Part shown: piece after piece, positions 1,555 to 37,251 of the stretch | Numbering within the stretch: the first letter of the stretch is position 1 | Layout of the letters: each line of letters opens with the position of its first letter | IMG/VR virus record: IMGVR_UViG_3300033074_000747 | DNA: 37,456 bases | Reading direction: 5' to 3' (one strand) | Source of the DNA: an uncultured virus (IMG/VR IMGVR_UViG_3300033074_000747) | Taxonomy: Duplodnaviria > Heunggongvirae > Uroviricota > Caudoviricetes | The notes under the pieces: generated by a model | Told to the model about the DNA's origin: nothing | Seen by the model: the letters and a program-made list of their open reading frames with translations, nothing else | Databases searched by the model: none | Program-made: the position numbers and the translations under genes

Positions 1555-3555
1555 ATGGCAAAGTCAAATGCGAAAGTAGTAACCAAGAAACCAGTTCCGC
1601 AGAAGGGGACCAAACCGGCCCCTAAGAAGCGAACGGACCCGGTGGCCGACGACACCCTGGAGCTGGTCTACCCCAACCGGCACTATGTCATGTTCGGGGA
1701 CTTCGAGGGGGCCGACCAGCCCCCGTTCACGGCCGACAACGCCAAGCTGCTGCTCGGCTGGGAGGGTGAGACCAAGCCGGACAAGGACGGGAAGGGTGGG
1801 GTGAGCTTCGGCGGGGACGCGATGAGCACCGACATGTTCGGCCTCAAGTTCCGCTGCACCCACAACATCTCCAATCGGCCGTTCGACCGCCGCCGGTCAA
1901 TGCAGTACGCCCAGGACGTGCTCTGCCGCCGATGGAAGTTCAACCTGGAGCCGATGATCATCGGCAAGCACGGCAACGTCGTGTCGGCCCAGCACCGGCT
2001 CACCGGCCTGGTGTTCGCCTACCAGCTCTGGAGCGACGACAGCCCTCAGCACCTCTACTGGCAGGAACTCTGGCCCAAGGATAAGTACCCGGACGGTCCG
2101 ACCATCGAGTGCACGGTGGCGTTCGGCTGCGACGAGGACGCGGAGACCGTGAGGACCATCGACAACGTGATGCCGCGTACCCTGGCGGACGTCCTGTTCA
2201 CGATGGGCTGCATGGCCGACATCGCTCGGAGCGACCGCAAGGAGGTCTGCCGCATGGTTGACTACGCGATCCGGCTGCTGTGGCACCGGACCAAGATGGA
2301 TGACGACGCCTACCGGCCGAACATGTCCCACAGCGAGGCGATCGACTTCATCGAGCGTCATCCCACTGTGCTCAACGCGGTGAAGGACATCCACGTTCAG
2401 AACAAGGAGGGTGGTATCACCAAGTTCTTCAAGGCCCCAGGCACTGCGGCAGGACTGCTCTACCTCATGGGCTGCTCCGGAGTGACCGGCGACCGCAACG
2501 CCAAGAACCAGCTCATCAAGTACGCCGACGGGATGGACGGCCACGTGTCCACCGAGATGACGTTCAAGAAGGGAGGCTGGGAGAGGTACGACCAGGCCTG
2601 CAACTACTGGTCGATGTTGATCACGAGCCACACCAAGGTCATGGAGGTCCGGACCGCCCTGGCCAACCTGGTGAACTCCGACACCGGAGAGCCGGACCTG
2701 CGGAAGGACACCAGCGCGGCCCGGTCCGCCATCATCATCAAGGGATGGAACGCCTTCATCGAGAAGGGCAAGGTAACGGCCGAGGACGTCGAGTTGAAGT
2801 GGGGTTACAAGCACGACCGACCGGTGCTCAACAGTTGGCCCGAGCTGGGTGGCATCGACGCTGGTGAGCCAGGCGGAGAGGAGCCGCTCGACGACGAGCC
2901 GAGCAGCGACACTCCCGACGAGAACGAGATCGAAGAGCGCAAGGAGCGGGTAGCTCGGGAGAAGATGAACGGCACCAAGAAGGCCCTGGACGCTCACCGC
3001 GAGAAGCAGGAGGCCAGCGTGGCAGCCCAGAAGCGGGTATGGGATGAGCTCAAGCTGGACAACCCTGGCGTCGTCCTCCTCTTCAAGATCAGGGGCAAGG
3101 ACGGCGTCGACAAGTTGCGTGCGTACTGGAGTGACGCCGACACCGTGGCCGAGCCGACCGCCGCCGAGGTTCAGCAGGTGATGGGGGCATCAGCAGTTAC
3201 CTACCTGTACTCTGACAAAGATGAGGTGGTTAGGCAACTGCTGGGGGCTGGCATTCGGGTGGCCCTGGTCGAGGAGACCGATGATGGGCCGAAGGCCACG
3301 CGGATCAACGCCGCGTCCGATCCGAGCGAGCCAGCTGCTGAGCAGGAGGACGACTCCGAGTCCAAGCCATCGCGAGGAGCGCCACGGCCGAGGGGCAACA
3401 AACGGGACTACGCCACCCAGGCCCAGGCAGAGCAGGCGGCACGTCAGGAGGAGTACGCACGGCTCGACGCCGAGAAGCGGGAGGCTGCGAAGAAGGAAGC
3501 CGAGTCGCAGCCCCGCCCCAAGCCCAAGAAGCGACCGACTCCCATCAATAAGTAG
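1555..3555 (+). CDS. ParB/DGQHR-like domain protein with C-terminal MutS domain I-like region (666 aa)
   Basis: NRPF..R..QYAQDV...W.FN.EP.I..K.G.VVSAQHRL resembles the phage ParB-like (DGQHR) N-domain. K..NPGVVLLFK...Y..DA..VA.....VVRQLLGAGIRVALVE resembles MutS_I. GAGGAG RBS. Confidence 0.6.
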   Translation: MAKSNAKVVTKKPVPQKGTKPAPKKRTDPVADDTLELVYPNRHYVMFGDFEGADQPPFTADNAKLLLGWEGETKPDKDGKGGVSFGGDAMSTDMFGLKFRCTHNISNRPFDRRRSMQYAQDVLCRRWKFNLEPMIIGKHGNVVSAQHRLTGLVFAYQLWSDDSPQHLYWQELWPKDKYPDGPTIECTVAFGCDEDAETVRTIDNVMPRTLADVLFTMGCMADIARSDRKEVCRMVDYAIRLLWHRTKMDDDAYRPNMSHSEAIDFIERHPTVLNAVKDIHVQNKEGGITKFFKAPGTAAGLLYLMGCSGVTGDRNAKNQLIKYADGMDGHVSTEMTFKKGGWERYDQACNYWSMLITSHTKVMEVRTALANLVNSDTGEPDLRKDTSAARSAIIIKGWNAFIEKGKVTAEDVELKWGYKHDRPVLNSWPELGGIDAGEPGGEEPLDDEPSSDTPDENEIEERKERVAREKMNGTKKALDAHREKQEASVAAQKRVWDELKLDNPGVVLLFKIRGKDGVDKLRAYWSDADTVAEPTAAEVQQVMGASAVTYLYSDKDEVVRQLLGAGIRVALVEETDDGPKATRINAASDPSEPAAEQEDDSESKPSRGAPRPRGNKRDYATQAQAEQAARQEEYARLDAEKREAAKKEAESQPRPKPKKRPTPINK

Positions 3556-3564
3556 TTAGCTGAC

Positions 3565-3623
3565 TGACTTCCCCATCGTCCCCTCCCGCTACCGCCCGAG
3601 CGCGAGGGGGATTGGGGCAGCCA
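3565..3623 (+). repeat. intergenic hairpin element A, copy 3
   Basis: TGAC-TT-CCCCA-TCG-[CCCCTC/GAGGGG]-GAT-TGGGG-CAGCCA; outer stem shows compensatory changes relative to copies 1-2. Confidence 0.65.
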
Positions 3624-3691
3624 TTCGGGATGTTCCCCTGGCATTTCGCCGGGGGGCCGAGCGGTGTCCGCAAGTCGAGAAGGATGAAGTC

Positions 3692-6379
3692 ATGAAGAAG
3701 AATGAGATCAAGATCGGCAAGCACTACACGATCAAGGTCGGCAACAAGATCGTTCCTATCCGCGTCAAGGACGTCTCCTCCCAGGGCCACTACCAGGTCA
3801 GTATCGTCGGTGGAGACGAGGAATTGACGTTGCGCTCTGCCCTTCGATTCCGCAAGCCCATCACCAAGAAGCAGGCCGTCGACATGGCTCGCGGCAAGGT
3901 GACCGAGGCACAGCTGTTCCCACCTCCTGACGACGGTGAAGTTCGTCAGGTGGGGATGGATGGAAAGACCTACGCCATGTCAAGCGGGGATGCCGAGGCA
4001 GTTCCGGTATCGGAGGGTGAGCAAGGCTCGGACCCTATGTCTGCCCCGAATGCGGGAGACCACCAGGTCAAGGTCGATATGACTGTCCCGAGCAAGTCTG
4101 CACCCGCCAAAGAGCGGCAGCAAGAGGAACGGATGGTCCCCCAATCCACGGCTCAGAGTGGATCTGTGGAAGATGTGGAGGAGTCCACCCACCTGGGAAA
4201 TGCACCGGTCCTCGGCAGCCTATTCGGTGAGACGTTTGCCGAAAGATACGGTTCAGAGGAATCTGGTATGCCCAAGCCGCCCACCAAGACCCAAACCTAC
4301 GACGGCATCAAGAAGAGGTTCAGCGAGGTCGGTAAATATGAAGTCGCGGACGCCGAGGCTGTTCCAGTATCGGAGGGTGAGGATAGCCCGGACCCTATGC
4401 CAGCCAGTGCCCCCGCTGTGGAGTCTGGAGAGGGGGGCTGTACGGCCCTGGATGCGTCTGCAACTCATTCGGTGGCCCCAAACCCTGAGTGGTGTACCGA
4501 TGAGGAACCTGACTGCTGCGAGGGTGAGCCGGGAGAACTCTGCTCGGCCTGCGGCAAGCAGATTCCATACACCTGCGCCGGTTGTGGCAAGCCTATCCAG
4601 GTGGTCCTCGACGACCCCCAGCCTACCAACTACCATCTGAAGTGCCGGCCGTCCAAGAGCGTTCTCGGTCAGAAGCTCAAGGAGCGGATCGAGCGTCAAG
4701 CCAACGAGCCGCACCTCATCGTCAAGGCACGGGCAGGCACGGGGAAGACCACCACGCTGATCTGTGCCCTCCAGGTGCTTCGGGGTCAGGAGCCTACCGA
4801 CGCGAAGGGACGGCCGATCACCCCCAGCCCGCAGCAGAAGGCCGTCTGGGACGCCGTGGCCCAGTCTCCAAGCAACTCCAGCGTGTGCTTCGTAGCATTC
4901 AACCGGAGCATCGCCGACGAGCTTCGCCGCCGAGTTCCTCCGGGATGCGACGCCATGACGATGCACTCCATGGGGCTCAAGGCGGTGATGGCCGCTTTCC
5001 CTGAACTGCGGGGCAAGAAGCTCAACGAGTACCGCACCCAGGACCTGATCGAGGAGCTGACCGGCCGTGACATCCGCGAGCTAAGAAAGGCACAGCCCAC
5101 CTTCGTCTCGGCGACGGCCAAGCTGGTCGAACTATGCAAGATGAACCTTATCAACGAGCCAGACACAACCGCACTGTCTGAGCTGGCCTCCTACTACGAC
5201 ATCGACATGGAGGGGACCAACCAACAGCAGGTGTTCGACCTAGTGCCTCGCATCATGGAACGATGCCGCGATCCTCTGGCCGGAGGAATGATCGACTACG
5301 CCGACATGATCTGGATGCCCGTGGTCCTCGGCCTTCCCGTCACCAAGTACGACATCCTGTTCGGCGACGAGGTTCAGGACTGGAACCGATGCCAGCAGGC
5401 CCTCGCCAAGATGGCCGGTCGTCGGCTGGTCCTCTGCGGCGACGAGAAGCAGGCCATCTACGGGTTCGCCGGAGCGGACAGCAAGAGCATGACACGGATG
5501 GCGAAGGAGTTGAGCGGGGGCCAATGTCTGAGATGTGGTACGGGCGGGGTGTGGTTTGACTCAAAGTCCGAAGAGGCCGAGGGCCACTCAGTCTACTGCC
5601 CTGGATGCCGTGATGCGGCTCAAACAAATTGTATCGTGCTACCGCTCACCGTTACCCGCCGTTGCGGCAAGGCCATCGTCGCCGAGGCCCGGAAGATCGT
5701 GCCGGACTTCGAGGCCCACGAGTCCAACCCCGAGGGCAAGATCAGTGAGGCCCGATACCCCACCGCCAAGGACCGGCAGGAGCTGCCCTGGGAGAAGACA
5801 TACTGCGCCCAGGTGCGGGAGGGTGACTTCATCCTATGCCGGGTGAACGCCCCGCTGGTGTCTCAGTGCTTCCGGTTCCTCCGCCGCGGCATCAAGGCCA
5901 ACATCCAGGGGAGGGACGTCGGGGCCGGTCTGATCAACACGGTCAAGCGGCTGATGAAGTCCTACGAGGACGACCCTCAATGGGGGCCGGTTCCCGCCCT
6001 CATCGGCAAGCTGGATGACTGGCGGAGTCAGGAGACCGCGAAGGAGAACGCCAAGCGGAACCCGAGCGAGTCCAAGCTGATCGGCATCCAGGATCGCTAC
6101 GAGTGCCTGTGCTGCTTCTGTGAGGACCAGACCAGTGTGTCAGGAGTGATCCGCAAGATCGAGTCCATCTTCACGGATGACAAGAACGGCACCGGCATCC
6201 GCCTCAGCAGCGTCCACAAGGCCAAGGGGCTGGAGGCCCGACGGGTGTTCTTCTTGATGCCCGAGGGCTGCGGCTGCCCGCATCCGATGGCGAAGAGCGC
6301 CTGGCAGCGGGAGCAGGAGATGAACTGCCTATACATCGGGATCACCAGGGCCATCGAGGAGCTGGTGTTCGTGTACTGA
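3692..6379 (+). CDS. SF1 UvrD/Rep-like DNA helicase with long N-terminal extension and Zn-ribbon insertions (895 aa)
   Basis: Motifs I ARAGTGKTT, Ia AFNRSIA, Ib TMHS, II DEVQD, III GDEKQAIYGFAGA, IV LTVTRRC, V SVHKAKGLE, VI EMNCLYIGITRA, in order. Confidence 0.93.
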   Translation: MKKNEIKIGKHYTIKVGNKIVPIRVKDVSSQGHYQVSIVGGDEELTLRSALRFRKPITKKQAVDMARGKVTEAQLFPPPDDGEVRQVGMDGKTYAMSSGDAEAVPVSEGEQGSDPMSAPNAGDHQVKVDMTVPSKSAPAKERQQEERMVPQSTAQSGSVEDVEESTHLGNAPVLGSLFGETFAERYGSEESGMPKPPTKTQTYDGIKKRFSEVGKYEVADAEAVPVSEGEDSPDPMPASAPAVESGEGGCTALDASATHSVAPNPEWCTDEEPDCCEGEPGELCSACGKQIPYTCAGCGKPIQVVLDDPQPTNYHLKCRPSKSVLGQKLKERIERQANEPHLIVKARAGTGKTTTLICALQVLRGQEPTDAKGRPITPSPQQKAVWDAVAQSPSNSSVCFVAFNRSIADELRRRVPPGCDAMTMHSMGLKAVMAAFPELRGKKLNEYRTQDLIEELTGRDIRELRKAQPTFVSATAKLVELCKMNLINEPDTTALSELASYYDIDMEGTNQQQVFDLVPRIMERCRDPLAGGMIDYADMIWMPVVLGLPVTKYDILFGDEVQDWNRCQQALAKMAGRRLVLCGDEKQAIYGFAGADSKSMTRMAKELSGGQCLRCGTGGVWFDSKSEEAEGHSVYCPGCRDAAQTNCIVLPLTVTRRCGKAIVAEARKIVPDFEAHESNPEGKISEARYPTAKDRQELPWEKTYCAQVREGDFILCRVNAPLVSQCFRFLRRGIKANIQGRDVGAGLINTVKRLMKSYEDDPQWGPVPALIGKLDDWRSQETAKENAKRNPSESKLIGIQDRYECLCCFCEDQTSVSGVIRKIESIFTDDKNGTGIRLSSVHKAKGLEARRVFFLMPEGCGCPHPMAKSAWQREQEMNCLYIGITRAIEELVFVY
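3989..4399 (+). repeat. two 51-nt direct repeats (3989-4039, 4349-4399) in the helicase 5' region
   Basis: DAEAVPVSEGExx(S/P)DPM twice, 360 nt apart, 44/51 nt identical by hand alignment. Confidence 0.9.
4033..4230 (+). other. start-less -1 frame ORF encoding two Zn-finger motifs (candidate frameshift product 1)
   Basis: PYVCPECGRPPGQGRYDCPEQVCTRQRAAARGTDGPPIHGSEWICGRCGGVHPPGKCTGPRQPIR*; bounded upstream by TGA at 4018-4020. Confidence 0.6.
4393..4488 (+). other. start-less -1 frame ORF encoding a Cys4 motif (candidate frameshift product 2)
   Basis: PYASQCPRCGVWRGGLYGPGCVCNSFGGPKP*; bounded upstream by TGA 4378-4380 and TAG 4384-4386. Confidence 0.55.
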
Positions 6380-33280: not shown

Positions 33281-36200
33281 TCATCTGAAGTCGGCGTGGC
33301 GCACCTTGATCACCGGCTCGGCGGCGATGGCGCTCAGCCAACGGTTGGTCTGCTTCAGCTCGTTCACCGCCTGCTCGGAGTCAACGGAGGACGGCTGGTT
33401 CACCTGGCTCATCACCGGGGTCGGGGCGTACCCCTGGGACTGGGTGAGGTGCTGCCGGGCCAGGTCGAACATGTCCAGCCGGTGGCCGATGAGCATGGCC
33501 TCGTCGCCCCGCAGCATCATCGTACTGATCGAGCTGCTGCCGGGGGCCGACCCGCCGACCACGCCGCCGGCGAACCCCGTAGTGGGGATGACCGTGCGAC
33601 CCTGGATGGCCTGGACCACCGAGTTCACGGCCGCCTCGACGTGGGTGTCGTGGGTGTAGAAGGACCCAGGGTTCGCCCCCATCGCGAGCACGGTGGCGGA
33701 GTACTCGGTGGCCTCCTTGATGTCAGCCAGGCTCCTTCCCAGCTCCCTCTTCGTAGCCCTCGACTCGTTCACGAACACGCCCGCGAGCGCGCGGAGGCCG
33801 GGGTGCAGTCTCTGCCCGGTGATCTGGGTGGCCAGGATCGACTCGTCGAGGCGGTTCACCATCTCCCCGATGCCTGACGTCATCCCGTTGAACCCCATCC
33901 TGGACGACCGGTAGAGGAGGTTCATCACCTCCTCGGAGTGCGTGTCGTGGGTGTAGATCGACCCTGGGGTGAGACCTCGACGGAAGAAGTTGATCACACT
34001 ACGCCCCATGCCGAACACGTTGCTGCCCACGTTGGAGGCCGCGCTGCCGATCCCGCTGGTCACCCCTCCCATGCTGGGGATCAGGTTGCGGATGGCCTGG
34101 ACCGCACCGAGGAAGGCGTCTCGCACCGTATTGACCAGCCCGGTCCAGACCGCCACCACGGAGTCGCGGACGGAGGTCCAGATGGACGTCGCCGTAGACT
34201 GGATCATGGACCATATCGCGGTGCCGGCGGCCTGGAACGCAGCCCAGGCGACGTTGTGGAGGCCCGTGATGGTCGTCATGAACGAGTTCCACAGTCCGGT
34301 CGCTATGATGAGAATCTGGTCCCAGGTCCTCTGAGCCCAGTCGCGGAGGAAGACGCCGACCGCCGTCCAGTCCCCCCTCAGCACGGCGAAGAATATGTTG
34401 AACGCGGTCTGTATGGTATCCACGAGGATATTCCAGGAGGCCAGCAGGGCAGGTACGATGTCCCGCAGAAACGAGTCCCACCCAGCTCGGAAGTAGGCTG
34501 ATATTGAGTCCCAGAATCGGGGGGCCAGGTTGTAGATGTAGTCCACACCCTGCTGGAACCGGGTCCAGATCTGCTGGCCCACCGACAGGATGTAGTTGTA
34601 GAACCCCATCACCCGGTCCGTGATACCCTGCCAGGTGAGGCCGATCCGGGAGAAGATGCCCTGGAGTCCATCGAGTATCCCGCCTCCGGGTCTACGCACC
34701 CGGATGCCAGGCGATCTCGGTGACGTCGTCGAACCGAGCGCGGATATGGGAGCACCCCCGCCCGCCTCCTCCTTCGTCCGGTTGAGACGGTCGAGGTAGT
34801 CGTTGATCCTTCCCAGGGCCTCCGCGCTGCGCCGGGCCACGCCGTCGATCCGCCCGGCCTCCTTCTTGATACCCTTGGAGAAGTTTTCTCCCAGCTTCTG
34901 ACCCTGGGCCGTGGCATTGTCCTGAGCGCGGCGGCTGACCGTGCCGTCCTCCATCTCGTTGAGACGCACCTGACGGAAGGCGGCGAACCCGTCGTTGAAC
35001 GTGTCGAGCTGCGAGTCGAGCTGTCGCTGGAGGCTCGCCTCGGTGGCCGCCAGGGTGTCAGGTAGCTGCTGGATGGTCTGGGTCACGTTCCCGAAGGCCG
35101 CGTTGAACTCCTCCTCCATCGGCCGCCAGACCTGCTCCCAGTTGGCCGTGCCGGCGATGAGGTCAGGGATGCTGCTCACCAGCCGGACGACTGTGGCGAC
35201 GAACAGCACGATGGCTCCCACGAGGACGCCGATCAGTCCGAGGAAGATGTTGAGCCAGTTGTCCCGCAGCCACTCCATCCCCGCCGAGGCTGCCTGCCAC
35301 GCCTGCCGGAACCCCCGGATCAGGAGCAGGGCGAGCCTCACCGCCCCGAGCTGGATGGCGGTCCACACGACCTGCGCCGCCTCTCCGAAGTTGGTGATGG
35401 CGTACTCGGCGTAGATCAGGGCGTCGATGATCGTGCTGCGGATTCCGTTCCAGATGCTGGTGGTCGTGTCGAGGACCCCGCCCATCTCGATCCCGAAGGC
35501 CCCCAGTACCTCGGCCACCAGGTCCATGATGAAGTTCCAGGCTCTCTCGGCCGCGCTGCGGATGTTGAGCCACAGGGCCACGGCCACCCCCTCGAACGCC
35601 TTCCATATAGGGTAGGCCCAGTCGATGAAGTTCTTGATCGACTGGCGGATGGCCGCGATGGTGGACATACCCGACTCCTTCACGGACGCCCACACGCTGG
35701 CGATGCCGGTGGTGTCGTCGGCCATCGACCCAATGACCGCCGTGAGGATGAGGATCAACGGGATGAGCGGACCGATAGCGAGGCGTGCCGCCCCTCCGAT
35801 GACCAGGAGGGTAGTCCTCAGCAGGTTCAAAGGATTGATGACGAAGAGGACCGCCCGAGCCGTCGCCGTAGCCCCTGCCAGCATGCCGGTCCAGAGCAGG
35901 GTGCTCGCCCTGGAGATCAGGGTCATCGGGTTGAGCCAGCTGAGGAAGGCCGGGGCTACCTGGAGGATCGGCGTGATGATCTTACCGAAGTTGACGATGT
36001 TGGCGGCGAACTTGAACATGGCTCCGGTGAGGGCCACAACGGTAACGAGGCCCACCTTGGCTATCCCTGGAAGGAGCTGGAACCCCTCCACCATCCTGCG
36101 TGCGATGAAGGCAGCCGGACCCGCGATGGTCGCGACGGCGGAGCCGAACTCCTCCATCACGTCGCCGACGGCGTTCTTCAGCTGCTTGATACGGCCCGAG

Positions 36201-36859
36201 GCGGTCTCTGCCCTCTTGCCCATCGTCTCCATGCCCGCAGCGAGCAGGGATTGGTAGCGGGTGAGGAACTCGGTCTCATCTCGAATACCTCTCAGCTCGG
36301 GGATCATACGGGCCATCTGCATGGCCAGCTGGGTATTTCCCTGGGCCACGGCCGCCGTGATGCGCAATGCTCCCTCCGGGGACGCCCGAGAGGACGCACT
36401 GGCCAGGGCGAGGGCCTGATCGACAGCCTGGTTGGCGGCAGACCCTAGTGCCCGGTAGCCTCGTGCCTGGGCAAGTAAGCTCAGAATGTACTCGTCTCCG
36501 TAGGTGGTGTTTGCCTGGATAGCCGACCCGAACTCCAGGGCAGACGTGATGTTATCCTCCACCTCCTCGTTGTTGGCTCGGAGCGACGCGCTCAAGGTGA
36601 TGATCGCGTCCTCCTGGGTGCTGTAGGCTGCGAGCATCTGGTTGAGACTTGCCCCGATGCCAGCGGCCCCCAGTGCACTCTTCAGGTTGCCCGCCCATCC
36701 CTGGAGTGCCTGGCCTACCTTGTCGATGTTCTCGCTCGACCTGCCGATCTTCTCGGCGGCATCCTTGGTCTGGTCGGCGGCATCCTGGAGCATCTGCTTA
36801 TAGTTGCCGGCGTCCCCGGCCAGCCGTATCACCAGGCGCTCGATCTCGGTCTCGTTCAT
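33281..36859 (-). CDS. tail tape measure protein (1192 aa)
   Basis: Follows the frameshifted chaperone pair; AGGAG RBS + ATGA overlap; ERLVIRLAGD N-terminus, T..G...QLKNAVGDV.E..G core, periodic Trp/Phe amphipathic repeats. Confidence 0.93.
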   Translation of the reverse strand: MNETEIERLVIRLAGDAGNYKQMLQDAADQTKDAAEKIGRSSENIDKVGQALQGWAGNLKSALGAAGIGASLNQMLAAYSTQEDAIITLSASLRANNEEVEDNITSALEFGSAIQANTTYGDEYILSLLAQARGYRALGSAANQAVDQALALASASSRASPEGALRITAAVAQGNTQLAMQMARMIPELRGIRDETEFLTRYQSLLAAGMETMGKRAETASGRIKQLKNAVGDVMEEFGSAVATIAGPAAFIARRMVEGFQLLPGIAKVGLVTVVALTGAMFKFAANIVNFGKIITPILQVAPAFLSWLNPMTLISRASTLLWTGMLAGATATARAVLFVINPLNLLRTTLLVIGGAARLAIGPLIPLILILTAVIGSMADDTTGIASVWASVKESGMSTIAAIRQSIKNFIDWAYPIWKAFEGVAVALWLNIRSAAERAWNFIMDLVAEVLGAFGIEMGGVLDTTTSIWNGIRSTIIDALIYAEYAITNFGEAAQVVWTAIQLGAVRLALLLIRGFRQAWQAASAGMEWLRDNWLNIFLGLIGVLVGAIVLFVATVVRLVSSIPDLIAGTANWEQVWRPMEEEFNAAFGNVTQTIQQLPDTLAATEASLQRQLDSQLDTFNDGFAAFRQVRLNEMEDGTVSRRAQDNATAQGQKLGENFSKGIKKEAGRIDGVARRSAEALGRINDYLDRLNRTKEEAGGGAPISALGSTTSPRSPGIRVRRPGGGILDGLQGIFSRIGLTWQGITDRVMGFYNYILSVGQQIWTRFQQGVDYIYNLAPRFWDSISAYFRAGWDSFLRDIVPALLASWNILVDTIQTAFNIFFAVLRGDWTAVGVFLRDWAQRTWDQILIIATGLWNSFMTTITGLHNVAWAAFQAAGTAIWSMIQSTATSIWTSVRDSVVAVWTGLVNTVRDAFLGAVQAIRNLIPSMGGVTSGIGSAASNVGSNVFGMGRSVINFFRRGLTPGSIYTHDTHSEEVMNLLYRSSRMGFNGMTSGIGEMVNRLDESILATQITGQRLHPGLRALAGVFVNESRATKRELGRSLADIKEATEYSATVLAMGANPGSFYTHDTHVEAAVNSVVQAIQGRTVIPTTGFAGGVVGGSAPGSSSISTMMLRGDEAMLIGHRLDMFDLARQHLTQSQGYAPTPVMSQVNQPSSVDSEQAVNELKQTNRWLSAIAAEPVIKVRHADFR

Positions 36860-37251
36860 CGGGCACTCCTGTGAATGATACTGCCGCCGTGCTTCGCCAG
36901 CCTGCTCCGCCACTGGGCCTTCGACTCAGCGGTGATACGGGCTATCTCCTCGGTCGAGGGCATCCCGTCCTTGCCGGCCCTCCTCGGCTCGATCTTGAAC
37001 TTGAGCTTGTAGTTCTCCGGGTCCAGTCGACGCTTGCTGTTGACCTGGGCGATCTCGTACCGGATCATTGCCAGGTACTGCTGGGTGAGGTCCGGCTTGT
37101 TCCATCTCTGGAGCAGCCACTCCTGCCAGACCTCGAACTGGCGATGAGTCATTGGCCCCCTCCAGCCCATCAGCTCGTGGAGGGGTAGATGCAGCTCGCG
37201 CGCGAGGTTCAGGTGGGCGTCATATCGCTGGGCGAGCTTTGCCCGTTTTTT
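36856..37251 (-). CDS. tail assembly chaperone, post-frameshift (gpT-like) segment
   Basis: -1 frame is open from the slippery site: KRAKLAQRYDAHLNLARELHLPLHELMGWRGPMTHRQFEVWQEW... to TGA overlapping the tape measure ATG. Confidence 0.82.
   Translation of the reverse strand, partial: KKRAKLAQRYDAHLNLARELHLPLHELMGWRGPMTHRQFEVWQEWLLQRWNKPDLTQQYLAMIRYEIAQVNSKRRLDPENYKLKFKIEPRRAGKDGMPSTEEIARITAESKAQWRSRLAKHGGSIIHRSAR

Follow-up and report, generated by a model that had tools for sequence, protein, structure and literature searches.

The stretch of DNA analysed here (hereafter the window) is the 37,456-nucleotide (nt) IMG/VR record IMGVR_UViG_3300033074_000747, which comes from an uncultured virus of the Caudoviricetes and has a G+C content of 61.7%. 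Our subject is a helicase gene on its plus strand (3692-6379, stop codon included), given in the list of open reading frames (ORFs) as 895 codons that begin with an ATG at 3692. The encoded protein of 895 amino acids (aa) consists of an N-terminal domain (hereafter the N-domain), a linker, an in-frame zinc (Zn) ribbon and a UvrD-like helicase of superfamily 1 (SF1). On the strength of sequence comparisons, we consider it probable, at roughly three chances in four, that the linker holds two copies of a portable cassette for programmed, non-canonical −1 frameshifting, with predicted products of 895, 179 and 265 aa. Below we document the anatomy of this cassette, its conservation, the codon evidence, and the presence of the same cassette at places where a −1 shift is obligatory.

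Residues 327-895 are assigned to a UvrD-like SF1 helicase by both Pfam and PHROG. The Pfam entry UvrD-helicase matches residues 339-606 (E 1.3e-17), UvrD_C and UvrD_C_2 match at the C-terminus, and the Pfam scores of 64.8, 35.0 and 34.7 bits lie above the respective cutoffs of 23, 25.6 and 27.4, as expected of a family member; the PHROG match is to phrog_1967, DNA helicase (E 9.8e-69). The G+C content at third codon positions (GC3) of this frame, which we call frame 0, is 0.83 in the N-domain and 0.75-0.92 across the helicase core.

The N-domain (3692-3889, about 60 aa) was studied with a hidden Markov model of its relatives, AlphaFold2 and Foldseek, and is probably a five-stranded beta-barrel of the Tudor/PWWP/SH3-like type. 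The AlphaFold2 model has five strands and a predicted local distance difference test (pLDDT) value of 91.1. Its best Foldseek matches are Tudor and PWWP domains, with template-modelling (TM) scores of 0.6-0.68 and non-significant E values of 0.07-0.2; Foldseek gave no match at E ≤ 0.001, and a Pfam search with residues 1 to about 60 matched no entry. The hidden Markov model matches 27 loci. Among 120 listed database proteins, the N-domain is fused to UvrD-like helicases or to HARE-HTH (PF05066) and is also found in small proteins, and the succession of N-domain, disordered linker and helicase in frame 0 is a common architecture.

Directly ahead of the helicase, frame 0 encodes a module (4520-4645, +) that opens with EGE and continues as a Zn ribbon, LCSACGKQIPYTCAGCGKP...KC (the ribbon itself at 4541-4645). 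This is the third EGE..PYTCAGCG unit of the linker, and an earlier, model-made reading of the bare letters (the sequence-only reading) was correct in placing it in frame 0. The ribbon aligns with the N-terminus of the helicase of a related locus, L003 (VCEDCGGHVPFTCNICGKPL), which has no N-domain, and it is a constitutive N-terminal Zn ribbon of the helicase. Likewise, the helicases of the relatives L002, L003, L017, L020, L021 and L045 have CxxC..CxxC N-termini in frame. The window gene differs from these SF1 relatives in that two extra, putative ribbons are found in the −1 frame only, and translation in that frame would end after them.

Both of these extra ribbons follow copies of a 61-nt direct repeat (3985-4045 and 4345-4405, 84% identical). 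The copies are spaced by 360 nt, a multiple of 3, and therefore lie in the same phase. Within them, the cassette GAGGGTGAG-N7-CGGACCCTAT is present at 4013-4037 and 4373-4397; a stricter pattern, GAGGNTGAG-N7-CGGACCCTA, finds exactly these two places in the window and matches none of 100 dinucleotide shuffles. Cassette 1 (4012-4038, +) is composed of the purine tract GGAGGGTGAG (4012-4021), a spacer, the proposed shift heptamer G_GAC_CCT (4030-4036) and the −1 codon TAT. Cassette 2 (4372-4398, +) has GGAGGGTGAG at 4372-4381 and the heptamer at 4390-4396, again followed by TAT. Frame 0 across the two copies reads ..DAEAVPVSEGEQGSDPM.. and ..DAEAVPVSEGEDSPDPM.., both of which conform to DAEAVPVSEGE-xxx-DPM.

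The −1 frame is closed at each cassette by the TGA within GG-TGA-G, and G-P-Y follows three codons on, then a Cys-rich peptide. Past copy 1 this frame runs as ARLGPYVCPECGRPPGQGRYDCPEQVC...WICGRCGGVHPPGKCTGPRQPIR (peptide PYVCPECGRPPGQGRYDCPEQVC...WICGRCGGVHPPGKC..) to a stop at 4228-4230, and past copy 2 as PGPYASQCPRCGVWRGGLYGPGCVCNSFGGPKP (peptide PYASQCPRCGVWRGGLYGPGCVC..) to a stop at 4486-4488. The portion read after a shift would be 4036-4230 (+) for −1 ORF 1 (Y..PIR, 64 codons plus TGA, the frame being open from 4021) and 4396-4488 (+) for −1 ORF 2 (YASQCPRCG..GCVC..KP, 30 codons plus TGA), and the predicted products comprise 179 and 265 aa, respectively. The Cys residues of −1 ORF 1 are arranged as C-x2-C-x10-C-x4-C and then C-x2-C-x3-H-x4-C. 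Upstream, the frame is closed by TGA 4018-4020 (part of the purine tract) at cassette 1 and by TGA 4378-4380 and TAG 4384-4386 at cassette 2, and neither of the ORFs thus bounded (4021-4227 and 4387-4485, both inside the 895-codon ORF) contains an ATG, GTG or TTG ahead of its Cys motifs. The arrangement is that of a frameshift site, with overlapping, start-less −1 ORFs entered from a long frame-0 ORF. The sequence-only reading had anticipated the duplicated cassette, the Cys-rich −1 frames with their closed and start-less 5' ends, a site outside the canonical X XXY YYZ heptamers, and predicted isoform sizes of ~180 and ~265 aa, and our analysis agrees on each of these points.

Both −1 ORFs end in a TGAG context (4222-4233, where frame 0 reads TTC GGT GAG, and 4480-4491, where it reads CCT GAG). 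This terminal TGAG equals the GGTGAG/TGAG of the 5' half of the cassette, which fits modules with TGAG at both ends. An origin of the −1 ribbons as recent out-of-frame copies of the in-frame ribbon was rejected: the DNA similarity is at chance level (23 nt, 74%), and the BLASTP E values are merely 0.008 and 0.12.

The −1 frame of copy 1 encodes 7 Cys residues, compared with a mean of 1.35 when frame 0 is resampled synonymously with the codon usage of the helicase core; none of 5000 resamplings reaches 7. If the local codon usage of the linker is applied instead, the Cys count has a P of 0.02 and CxxC one of 0.04. The −1 peptides show the spacing pattern of Zn ribbons, and the best Pfam entry, zf-C2HC_3, stays below threshold (E 0.002; 18.4 bits, cutoff 24). 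For copy 2, GC3 is 0.71 in the −1 frame and 0.58 in frame 0, and that of the helicase core is 0.83.

Other assemblies contain the same region. Sequencing run X1, the likely source, yields a 50-kb contig identical to the window sequence, and run X2, a second sample of the same study, yields short contigs that are also identical. In run X3 (another study) a contig spans 4372-4493 with a single substitution and no gap, and in run X4 (a third study) one spans 4012-4333 with 24 substitutions and, again, no gap. Given that the contigs of X1-X4 show no gaps, the frame relations in the helicase linker do not stem from assembly indels, which the sequence-only reading had named as a possible refutation.

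A scan of metagenomes with the helicase alignment retrieved 482 relatives and retained the best 80, and the comparison set comprises 20 genes in which an N-domain is fused to a helicase, the window gene included. The octamer GGACCCTA is present in the linker, in the same phase, in 8 of these 20 (L001, L013, L025, L027, L054, L063, L071 and the window), where it reads ..NCG GAC CCT AYN and is usually preceded by G-GAG-GNT-GAG; L068, which is cut at its 5' end, carries the octamer too. The helicase cores of octamer-bearing genes are 50-55% identical, and their linkers are unalignable. The Pro codon at the site is CCT in all eight loci. Of all the Pro codons of these genes, CCT accounts for 0-39%, and the product of its frequencies over the eight loci, treated as independent, is 10^-7.7.

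Past the site, the −1 frame of the relatives encodes G-P-Y and then mostly a Zn-ribbon-like peptide and a stop. The pattern CxxC..CxC/H is found in the −1 frame of 7 of the 20 linkers and in the +1 frame of none, and synonymous-codon shuffles within each linker give per-locus P values of 0-0.10, with about 0.37 pattern matches expected in total. Examples of such −1 peptides are FDCYECG..YCPRCG in L001, PYCPVCGGEWPCPKGC..PYACSICGEDRRDGCDC in L071, CQYCGRPLSECDCP in L068 and PRCIDCG..LCHACNH in L015. Codon usage points the same way in several loci, with GC3 values in the −1 frame and frame 0 of 0.82 and 0.61 (L013), 0.96 and 0.61 (L025), 0.82 and 0.55 (L071), 0.81 and 0.69 (L063b) and 0.69 and 0.62 (L068). 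The −1 values of L013, L025, L071 and L063b are near that of the helicase core, and L015 is similar codon by codon. N-domain proteins with HARE-HTH tails and similar linkers have neither GPY nor paired CxxC in the −1 frame (8 ORFs, inspected by eye). In the helicase homologues, the site and the −1 ORF are conserved beyond what frame-0 coding needs; the sequence-only reading had proposed collecting homologues of the N-terminal domain, and the counts above give a positive answer.

At the position of the cassette, L015 (903-912) reads GAG GGG GAG CAG AGC CTC CCC CCG and has neither the TGA nor GGACCCT. Its C_CCC_CCG run is a canonical-type heptamer, followed by a −1 Zn ribbon with GC3 near 1, and L015 may come from a lineage that exchanged the site for a classical slippery run.

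Proteins that join an N-domain to a Zn ribbon in a single frame are encoded elsewhere (P0110, 159 aa, in 8 contigs; P0018; P0025), as are proteins with N-domain, Zn ribbon and HARE-HTH (P0079, P0086, P0105). Thus, the architecture predicted for the short isoforms exists in one frame in other genomes, as exemplified by P0110, P0018 and P0025. Direct searches with the window sequences returned little. With residues 1-330 as a protein query (lengths 492-1567), the window's own protein was the sole match, and the frame-0 linker (3869-4468) as a protein query (lengths 110-350) had no matches. Region 3600-4750 had no blastn match, at a distant setting, in the phage GenBank collection; the exact window cassette, TCGGAGGGTGAG-N9-GACCCTATG, had 0 matches in viral contigs; and the linker peptide pattern had 52 pattern matches in JGI metagenomes, with no relatives among them.

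The cassette is also found in genes that are not helicases. The pattern GAGGNTGAG-N7-CGGACCCTA has 17 loci in IMG/VR, compared with 4 for the reversed control pattern, and a looser form has 34 viral loci. A stricter form is present in 6 genome contigs, 3 of them from Gemmata, and two Gemmata genomes carry 1 and 2 copies, all in prophage-type genes.

Many phages are known to produce two tail assembly chaperones from overlapping frames, the G/GT frameshift reportedly described by Xu, Hendrix and Duda in 2004 (lambda gpG/gpGT). Judging from gene layout, the cassette sits where this −1 shift is expected in 12 other phage contigs. In these 12 distinct loci, a small frame-0 ORF stops 3-61 codons past the DP of the cassette, and the −1 frame runs on for 47-90 aa as ordinary-looking protein. 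An automatic check found a long ORF that begins at the end of the −1 ORF in 5 loci (L125, L129, L145, L151, L152). PHROG identifies the product of the downstream ORF as a tape measure protein in 4 of the 12 (L104, L106, L125 and L152), which have two overlapping ORFs with a −1 join directly 5' of the tape measure gene; the 8 further loci fit the G/GT layout by geometry alone. An in-phase XXXYYYZ heptamer is absent from 11 of the 12 overlaps (31-118 nt, from the upstream −1 stop to the frame-0 stop), the exception being L137, which has CCCCCCG. The cassette is the only element common to the 12 overlaps, that of L152 being just 31 nt long. PHROG has no match for the cassette-bearing small ORFs. 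As a separate observation, L133 and L137 represent the same gene in two contigs and differ by an indel right behind the cassette: the −1 peptide of L133 past GPYPGRFPP is the frame-0 tail of L137, a natural variation in the frame that is read.

The window has a G/GT region of its own on the minus strand, cut by the window end. The G frame reads ..SAAKNGQSSPSDMTPT* with its stop at 37209-37211, an in-phase canonical heptamer A_AAA_AAC is located at 37245-37251 (−) with GGGAG 6 nt upstream, and the −1 frame (KKRAKLAQRYDAH...) reaches the start of the tape measure gene (33284-36913, −), which encodes a 1210-aa PHROG tape measure protein. From this layout, the phage appears to use −1 frameshifting in its own G/GT pair, which we count in favour of our interpretation of the helicase gene. 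It thus combines a classical −1 site at G/GT, A_AAA_AAC, with the GGACCCU cassette in the helicase gene.

A second context where frame 0 is incomplete is found in L102 (the same as L141; minus strand, locus 2350-3117), whose frame 0 matches Pfam FGE-sulfatase over profile positions 5-206 of 255. Five cassettes in tandem come after the FGE part, and behind each of them a −1 ORF of 45-53 residues extends as far as the TGA belonging to the next cassette. When the −1 peptides of four cassettes are combined into a profile, this profile matches residues 255-293 of the 294 residues of 2y3c_A, the T. denticola variable protein 1 (E 0.0014), and matches the C-terminus of PorK/GldK as well. By this comparison, the −1 peptides correspond to the missing C-terminal part of the FGE fold, and the cassette would join the N-part of the FGE domain, in frame 0, to its C-terminal strands, in the −1 frame.

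The −1 segments of L102 are different copies, 49-60% identical, of the C-terminal segment of the lectin fold, RGGSW..CR.A.R....GFRP. This segment is the variable part of the targets of diversity-generating retroelements, such as TvpA. The L102 array resembles a collection of alternative C-termini from which one is selected during translation. Further carriers are genes for RecT (L110), AAA_24 (L094, L115) and a Gp3-like protein (L100/L113), with the cassette in the interdomain linker, and Zn-ribbon-like −1 tails are also present in L110, L115 and L100.

Taken as a −1 frameshift element, the cassette would operate as follows. Most ribosomes would read through in frame 0 and produce the 895-aa protein with N-domain, linker, Zn ribbon and helicase. 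A fraction would slip back by one base at G_GAC_CCU (4030-4036 or 4390-4396), go on with UAU in the −1 frame and terminate after the addition of a small Zn ribbon, and the short products of 179 and 265 aa would each contain the N-domain and one Zn ribbon and no motor. Peptidyl-transfer RNA (tRNA) for Pro would re-pair from CCU to CCC, whereby a wobble pair becomes a Watson-Crick pair, and tRNA-Asp may simultaneously re-pair from GAC to GGA with two of three pairs kept. The upstream tract GGAGGNUGAG is partly complementary to the 3' end of 16S ribosomal RNA (rRNA) and probably helps through pairing with it, in the manner of dnaX with its internal Shine-Dalgarno (SD) element; the GGAGG of the tract ends 13 nt ahead of the heptamer, and the UGAG 8 nt ahead. 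G_GAC_CCU together with the purine-rich upstream tract is the likely signal. With low confidence, we suggest that the short isoforms could load, regulate or compete with the helicase, because they would keep the targeting and DNA-binding parts and lack the motor.

The proposals of the sequence-only reading can be refined in three respects. It had placed the shift near (C/T)CG GAC CCT; the region stands, and is now refined to the conserved G_GAC_CCU (or C_CCU). The SD-like GGAGG/GGTGA that it had noted upstream is indeed present in both window copies and is not universal among cassettes, given that tract GGAGGNUGAG is common and GGAGG or GAGG is found in most cassettes, not all. Finally, comparison supports its proposal that one gene specifies a helicase plus short Zn-finger isoforms, and the cassette is, as far as these sequences indicate, a portable element of many genes and not peculiar to this helicase.

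Several observations weigh against the frameshift interpretation and should be kept in mind. The site reads G_GAC_CCT and does not conform to X_XXY_YYZ; given this and the 11 of 12 G/GT overlaps without a canonical heptamer, the element therefore appears to act like a −1 site without being a canonical member of that class. In all 10 cases tested, the folds of the 80 nt past the site are no better than those of shuffled sequences (z −1.73 to +1.68), and no downstream stimulatory hairpin or pseudoknot was found. The peptide of −1 ORF 1 has no Pfam match above cutoff, and a search of 1.84 billion representatives with the 69-aa −1 peptide gave no full-length relative, the 2 weak matches being to 2000-aa proteins. 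The codon usage of −1 ORF 1 is poor (GC3 0.46, compared with 0.66 in frame 0), and the Cys pattern of copy 2 alone is not significant under local codon usage (P 0.14-0.21). Some cassettes are followed by short −1 ORFs (7 aa in L054, 16 aa in L063b, 13 aa in L154), and the 70-aa −1 ORF of L093 contains no CxxC; the cassette therefore can persist without a recognisable module.

Further points against it concern genes other than the helicase. The long downstream ORFs of L097, L101 and L103 have no PHROG match, GGAGG is missing upstream of some G/GT-type sites (L125, L137, L152), and the window's own G/GT pair uses A_AAA_AAC and not the GGACCCU cassette. Conservation of GGNTGAG in the viral set is circular because the search patterns imposed it, and only the homology-derived helicase set is unbiased for the conservation of this tract. 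Single −1 peptides of L102 have no Pfam FGE match, the match having come only from the profile search of solved structures.

Among the alternatives, the one that survives best holds that only frame 0 matters. E-x-E-xxx-DP-T would then serve disordered linkers as a short linear peptide motif or mark a recombination joint in them, and the −1 ribbons would be left over, untranslated, from duplicated Zn-ribbon DNA or would arise as by-products of coding rich in Ala, Ser, Thr and Pro. Consistent with this, [ED]x[ED]xxxDP[TMI..] is present in 25 of the 67 N-domain helicases of at least 300 aa among the 120 listed proteins, and the three differences within DAEAVPVSEGE between the window copies are all synonymous in frame 0. 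Mean −1 Cys counts are already high in shuffles for some loci (5.3 compared with 6 observed in L001, 7.1 compared with 7 in L013), the low −1 GC3 of copy 1 has been mentioned, and the joints at cassette edges in X3 and X4 (see below) fit a recombination module. However, this explanation does not account for the invariant CCT codon, for the coding-like −1 GC3 of L013, L025, L071 and L015, or for a ribbon pattern that favours the −1 over the +1 frame by seven linkers to none. Nor does it account for the tail-chaperone-type loci, where frame 0 ends within a few codons and the −1 frame alone reaches the tape measure gene, or for L102, where the FGE domain is complete only via the −1 frame; moreover, the HARE-HTH-tailed proteins described above have similar linkers without the −1 features. 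We regard a frame-0-only explanation as unlikely.

Marginally less likely, in our view, is genuine recoding by a route other than simple slippage on G_GAC_CCU, in which some factor from phage or host, either a protein or an RNA, recognises the ~25-nt cassette and stalls or pushes the ribosome, or one base goes missing at the RNA level. What defines the signal is sequence and not slipperiness, with ~17 conserved bases that extend far to the 5' side of the site, no structure is detected downstream, and the cassette is confined to phage and prophage genes, including those of the Gemmata genomes with 1 and 2 copies, all of which would suit such a factor. Nevertheless, no candidate factor was found, and involvement of a phage tRNA was dropped when no tRNA gene was found in the window. 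A run of three C residues is too short for known transcriptional slippage, and CCU-to-CCC re-pairing with an SD-like tract at a dnaX-like distance is a sufficient explanation in cis.

It is quite improbable that the Zn-ribbon ORFs are separate mini-genes with a non-canonical internal start behind the SD-like GGAGG. A strong SD-like tract does precede each −1 ORF, but no ATG, GTG or TTG lies between the −1 stop and the first Cys in the window or its homologues, the three codons past the TGA vary (GCA AGG CTC, GGA TAG CCC, GCA GCG CCC and others), the second stop of copy 2 leaves only CCC GGA ahead of CCC TAT, and the G/GT loci biologically need a fusion protein. An artefact or decay, whether by assembly indels or pseudogenisation of the helicase, would suit a contig of metagenomic origin and is scarcely credible here: contigs from three studies exclude assembly indels as the source of the frame relations, the arrangement is seen again in independent assemblies, and frame 0 is open over 895 codons with its helicase motifs intact.

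Three known systems resemble −1 frameshifting as proposed for the window gene. In dnaX, a gene for a replication protein likewise gives a full-length and a truncated product by a −1 shift, with an internal SD-like element upstream, for which Larsen et al. reportedly found in 1994 an optimal spacing of 10-14 nt. However, slippage in dnaX takes place on the canonical A_AAA_AAG and requires a hairpin downstream, whereas the window site is G_GAC_CCU with no hairpin detected; the −1 frame of dnaX adds one residue and a stop, whereas that of the window is predicted to add a Zn-ribbon module; and the window cassette, unlike dnaX, is duplicated. In E. coli copA, a −1 frameshift on C_CCA_AAG with a downstream pseudoknot yields CopA(Z). 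Similar to our proposal, one gene there specifies both the complete enzyme and a short isoform that consists of the enzyme's N-terminal metal-binding domain, but in the window gene the predicted metal-binding part of the short isoform is encoded in the −1 frame only. The likeness to G/GT pairs holds for the 12 related contigs, where the cassette is at the exact position, frame 0 ends just past the site and the −1 extension ends at a tape measure gene, PHROG-confirmed in 4; the window cassettes differ from lambda-type G/GT in that they lie in a helicase gene and not a tail gene.

According to published work, the −1 shift of E. coli dnaX (tau/gamma) depends on three signals, including an upstream Shine-Dalgarno-like stimulator (PMC5389563), the G/GT layout of tail chaperones is conserved with XXXYYYZ heptamers as the published sites (PMC3483164), and PRFect treats XXXYYYZ as the only slippery motif identified to date (PMC10885494). 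By comparison with those published sites, 11 of the 12 cassette loci have no such heptamer. The openly accessible literature that was searched, including passages of PMC3711429, PMC5009743, PMC3483164 and PMC10885494, describes neither this motif nor a frameshift in helicase genes of this type. Programmed −1 frameshifting is a known event, and its signal, portability and gene contexts in the present case appear to be new.

We tentatively extend this to a wider proposal, to which we assign somewhat less than even odds as a whole. In it, (GGAGG)NUGAG-N7-C_GGA_CCC_UAY is a portable recoding module that is defined by its sequence and not by slipperiness, is shuffled among genes by a phage clade of which some members are integrated in Gemmata (Planctomycetota), and adds alternative C-terminal modules during translation. 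The modules would be Zn ribbons (in helicases, RecT, AAA_24 and Gp3-like proteins), the T part of tail chaperones, and ends of the FGE-type lectin fold. Tandem arrays on one messenger RNA would give graded isoforms; L102 has 5 units, the window 2 and a relative probably 3. The signal may rely on a special feature of tRNA-Pro or of the host ribosome, or on a phage factor.

Bacterial and phage −1 sites are located and annotated almost wholly via XXXYYYZ heptamers. If the cassette acts as proposed, current predictors miss a whole class of frameshift sites, and a defined 25-nt element becomes available for studying Pro-tRNA re-pairing and rRNA pairing in place of a slippery run. Hidden isoforms would then be expected in genes of replication and recombination (helicase, RecT, AAA_24), among them two unannotated Zn-ribbon proteins predicted from the present helicase gene. 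The tandem arrays suggest an undescribed way to protein variety, a translational counterpart of alternative last exons.

Two strain variants differ from the window at cassette edges. The X3 relative diverges from the window exactly upstream of 4372 and is 99% identical from 4372 on. Record 12 of X4 (523 nt) matches 3903-4038 and again 4012-4333, with 48 other letters in between, and this relative seems to have one cassette more, within an additional unit of 75 nt (25 codons). In these alignments, the edges of the cassettes resemble recombination joints and places at which copy number changes.

Two features outside the linker deserve brief mention. The gene 5' of the helicase gene (1555-3555, +; 666 aa) keeps its position in L001 (636-2102) and L003 (1402-2850). 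Its product matches only phrog_5931, of unknown function, and we take it to be ParB-like from its sequence, an assignment that no tool confirmed. Within the helicase core, at about 5513-5611 (residues ~608-640), the window protein has a 33-residue in-frame insertion, ..CLRCGTGG...YCPGCRD.., that is absent from four aligned relatives, and the L002 helicase has another Cys-rich insertion at a different place. Small Zn ribbons seem to have been inserted repeatedly in this family of UvrD-like helicases.

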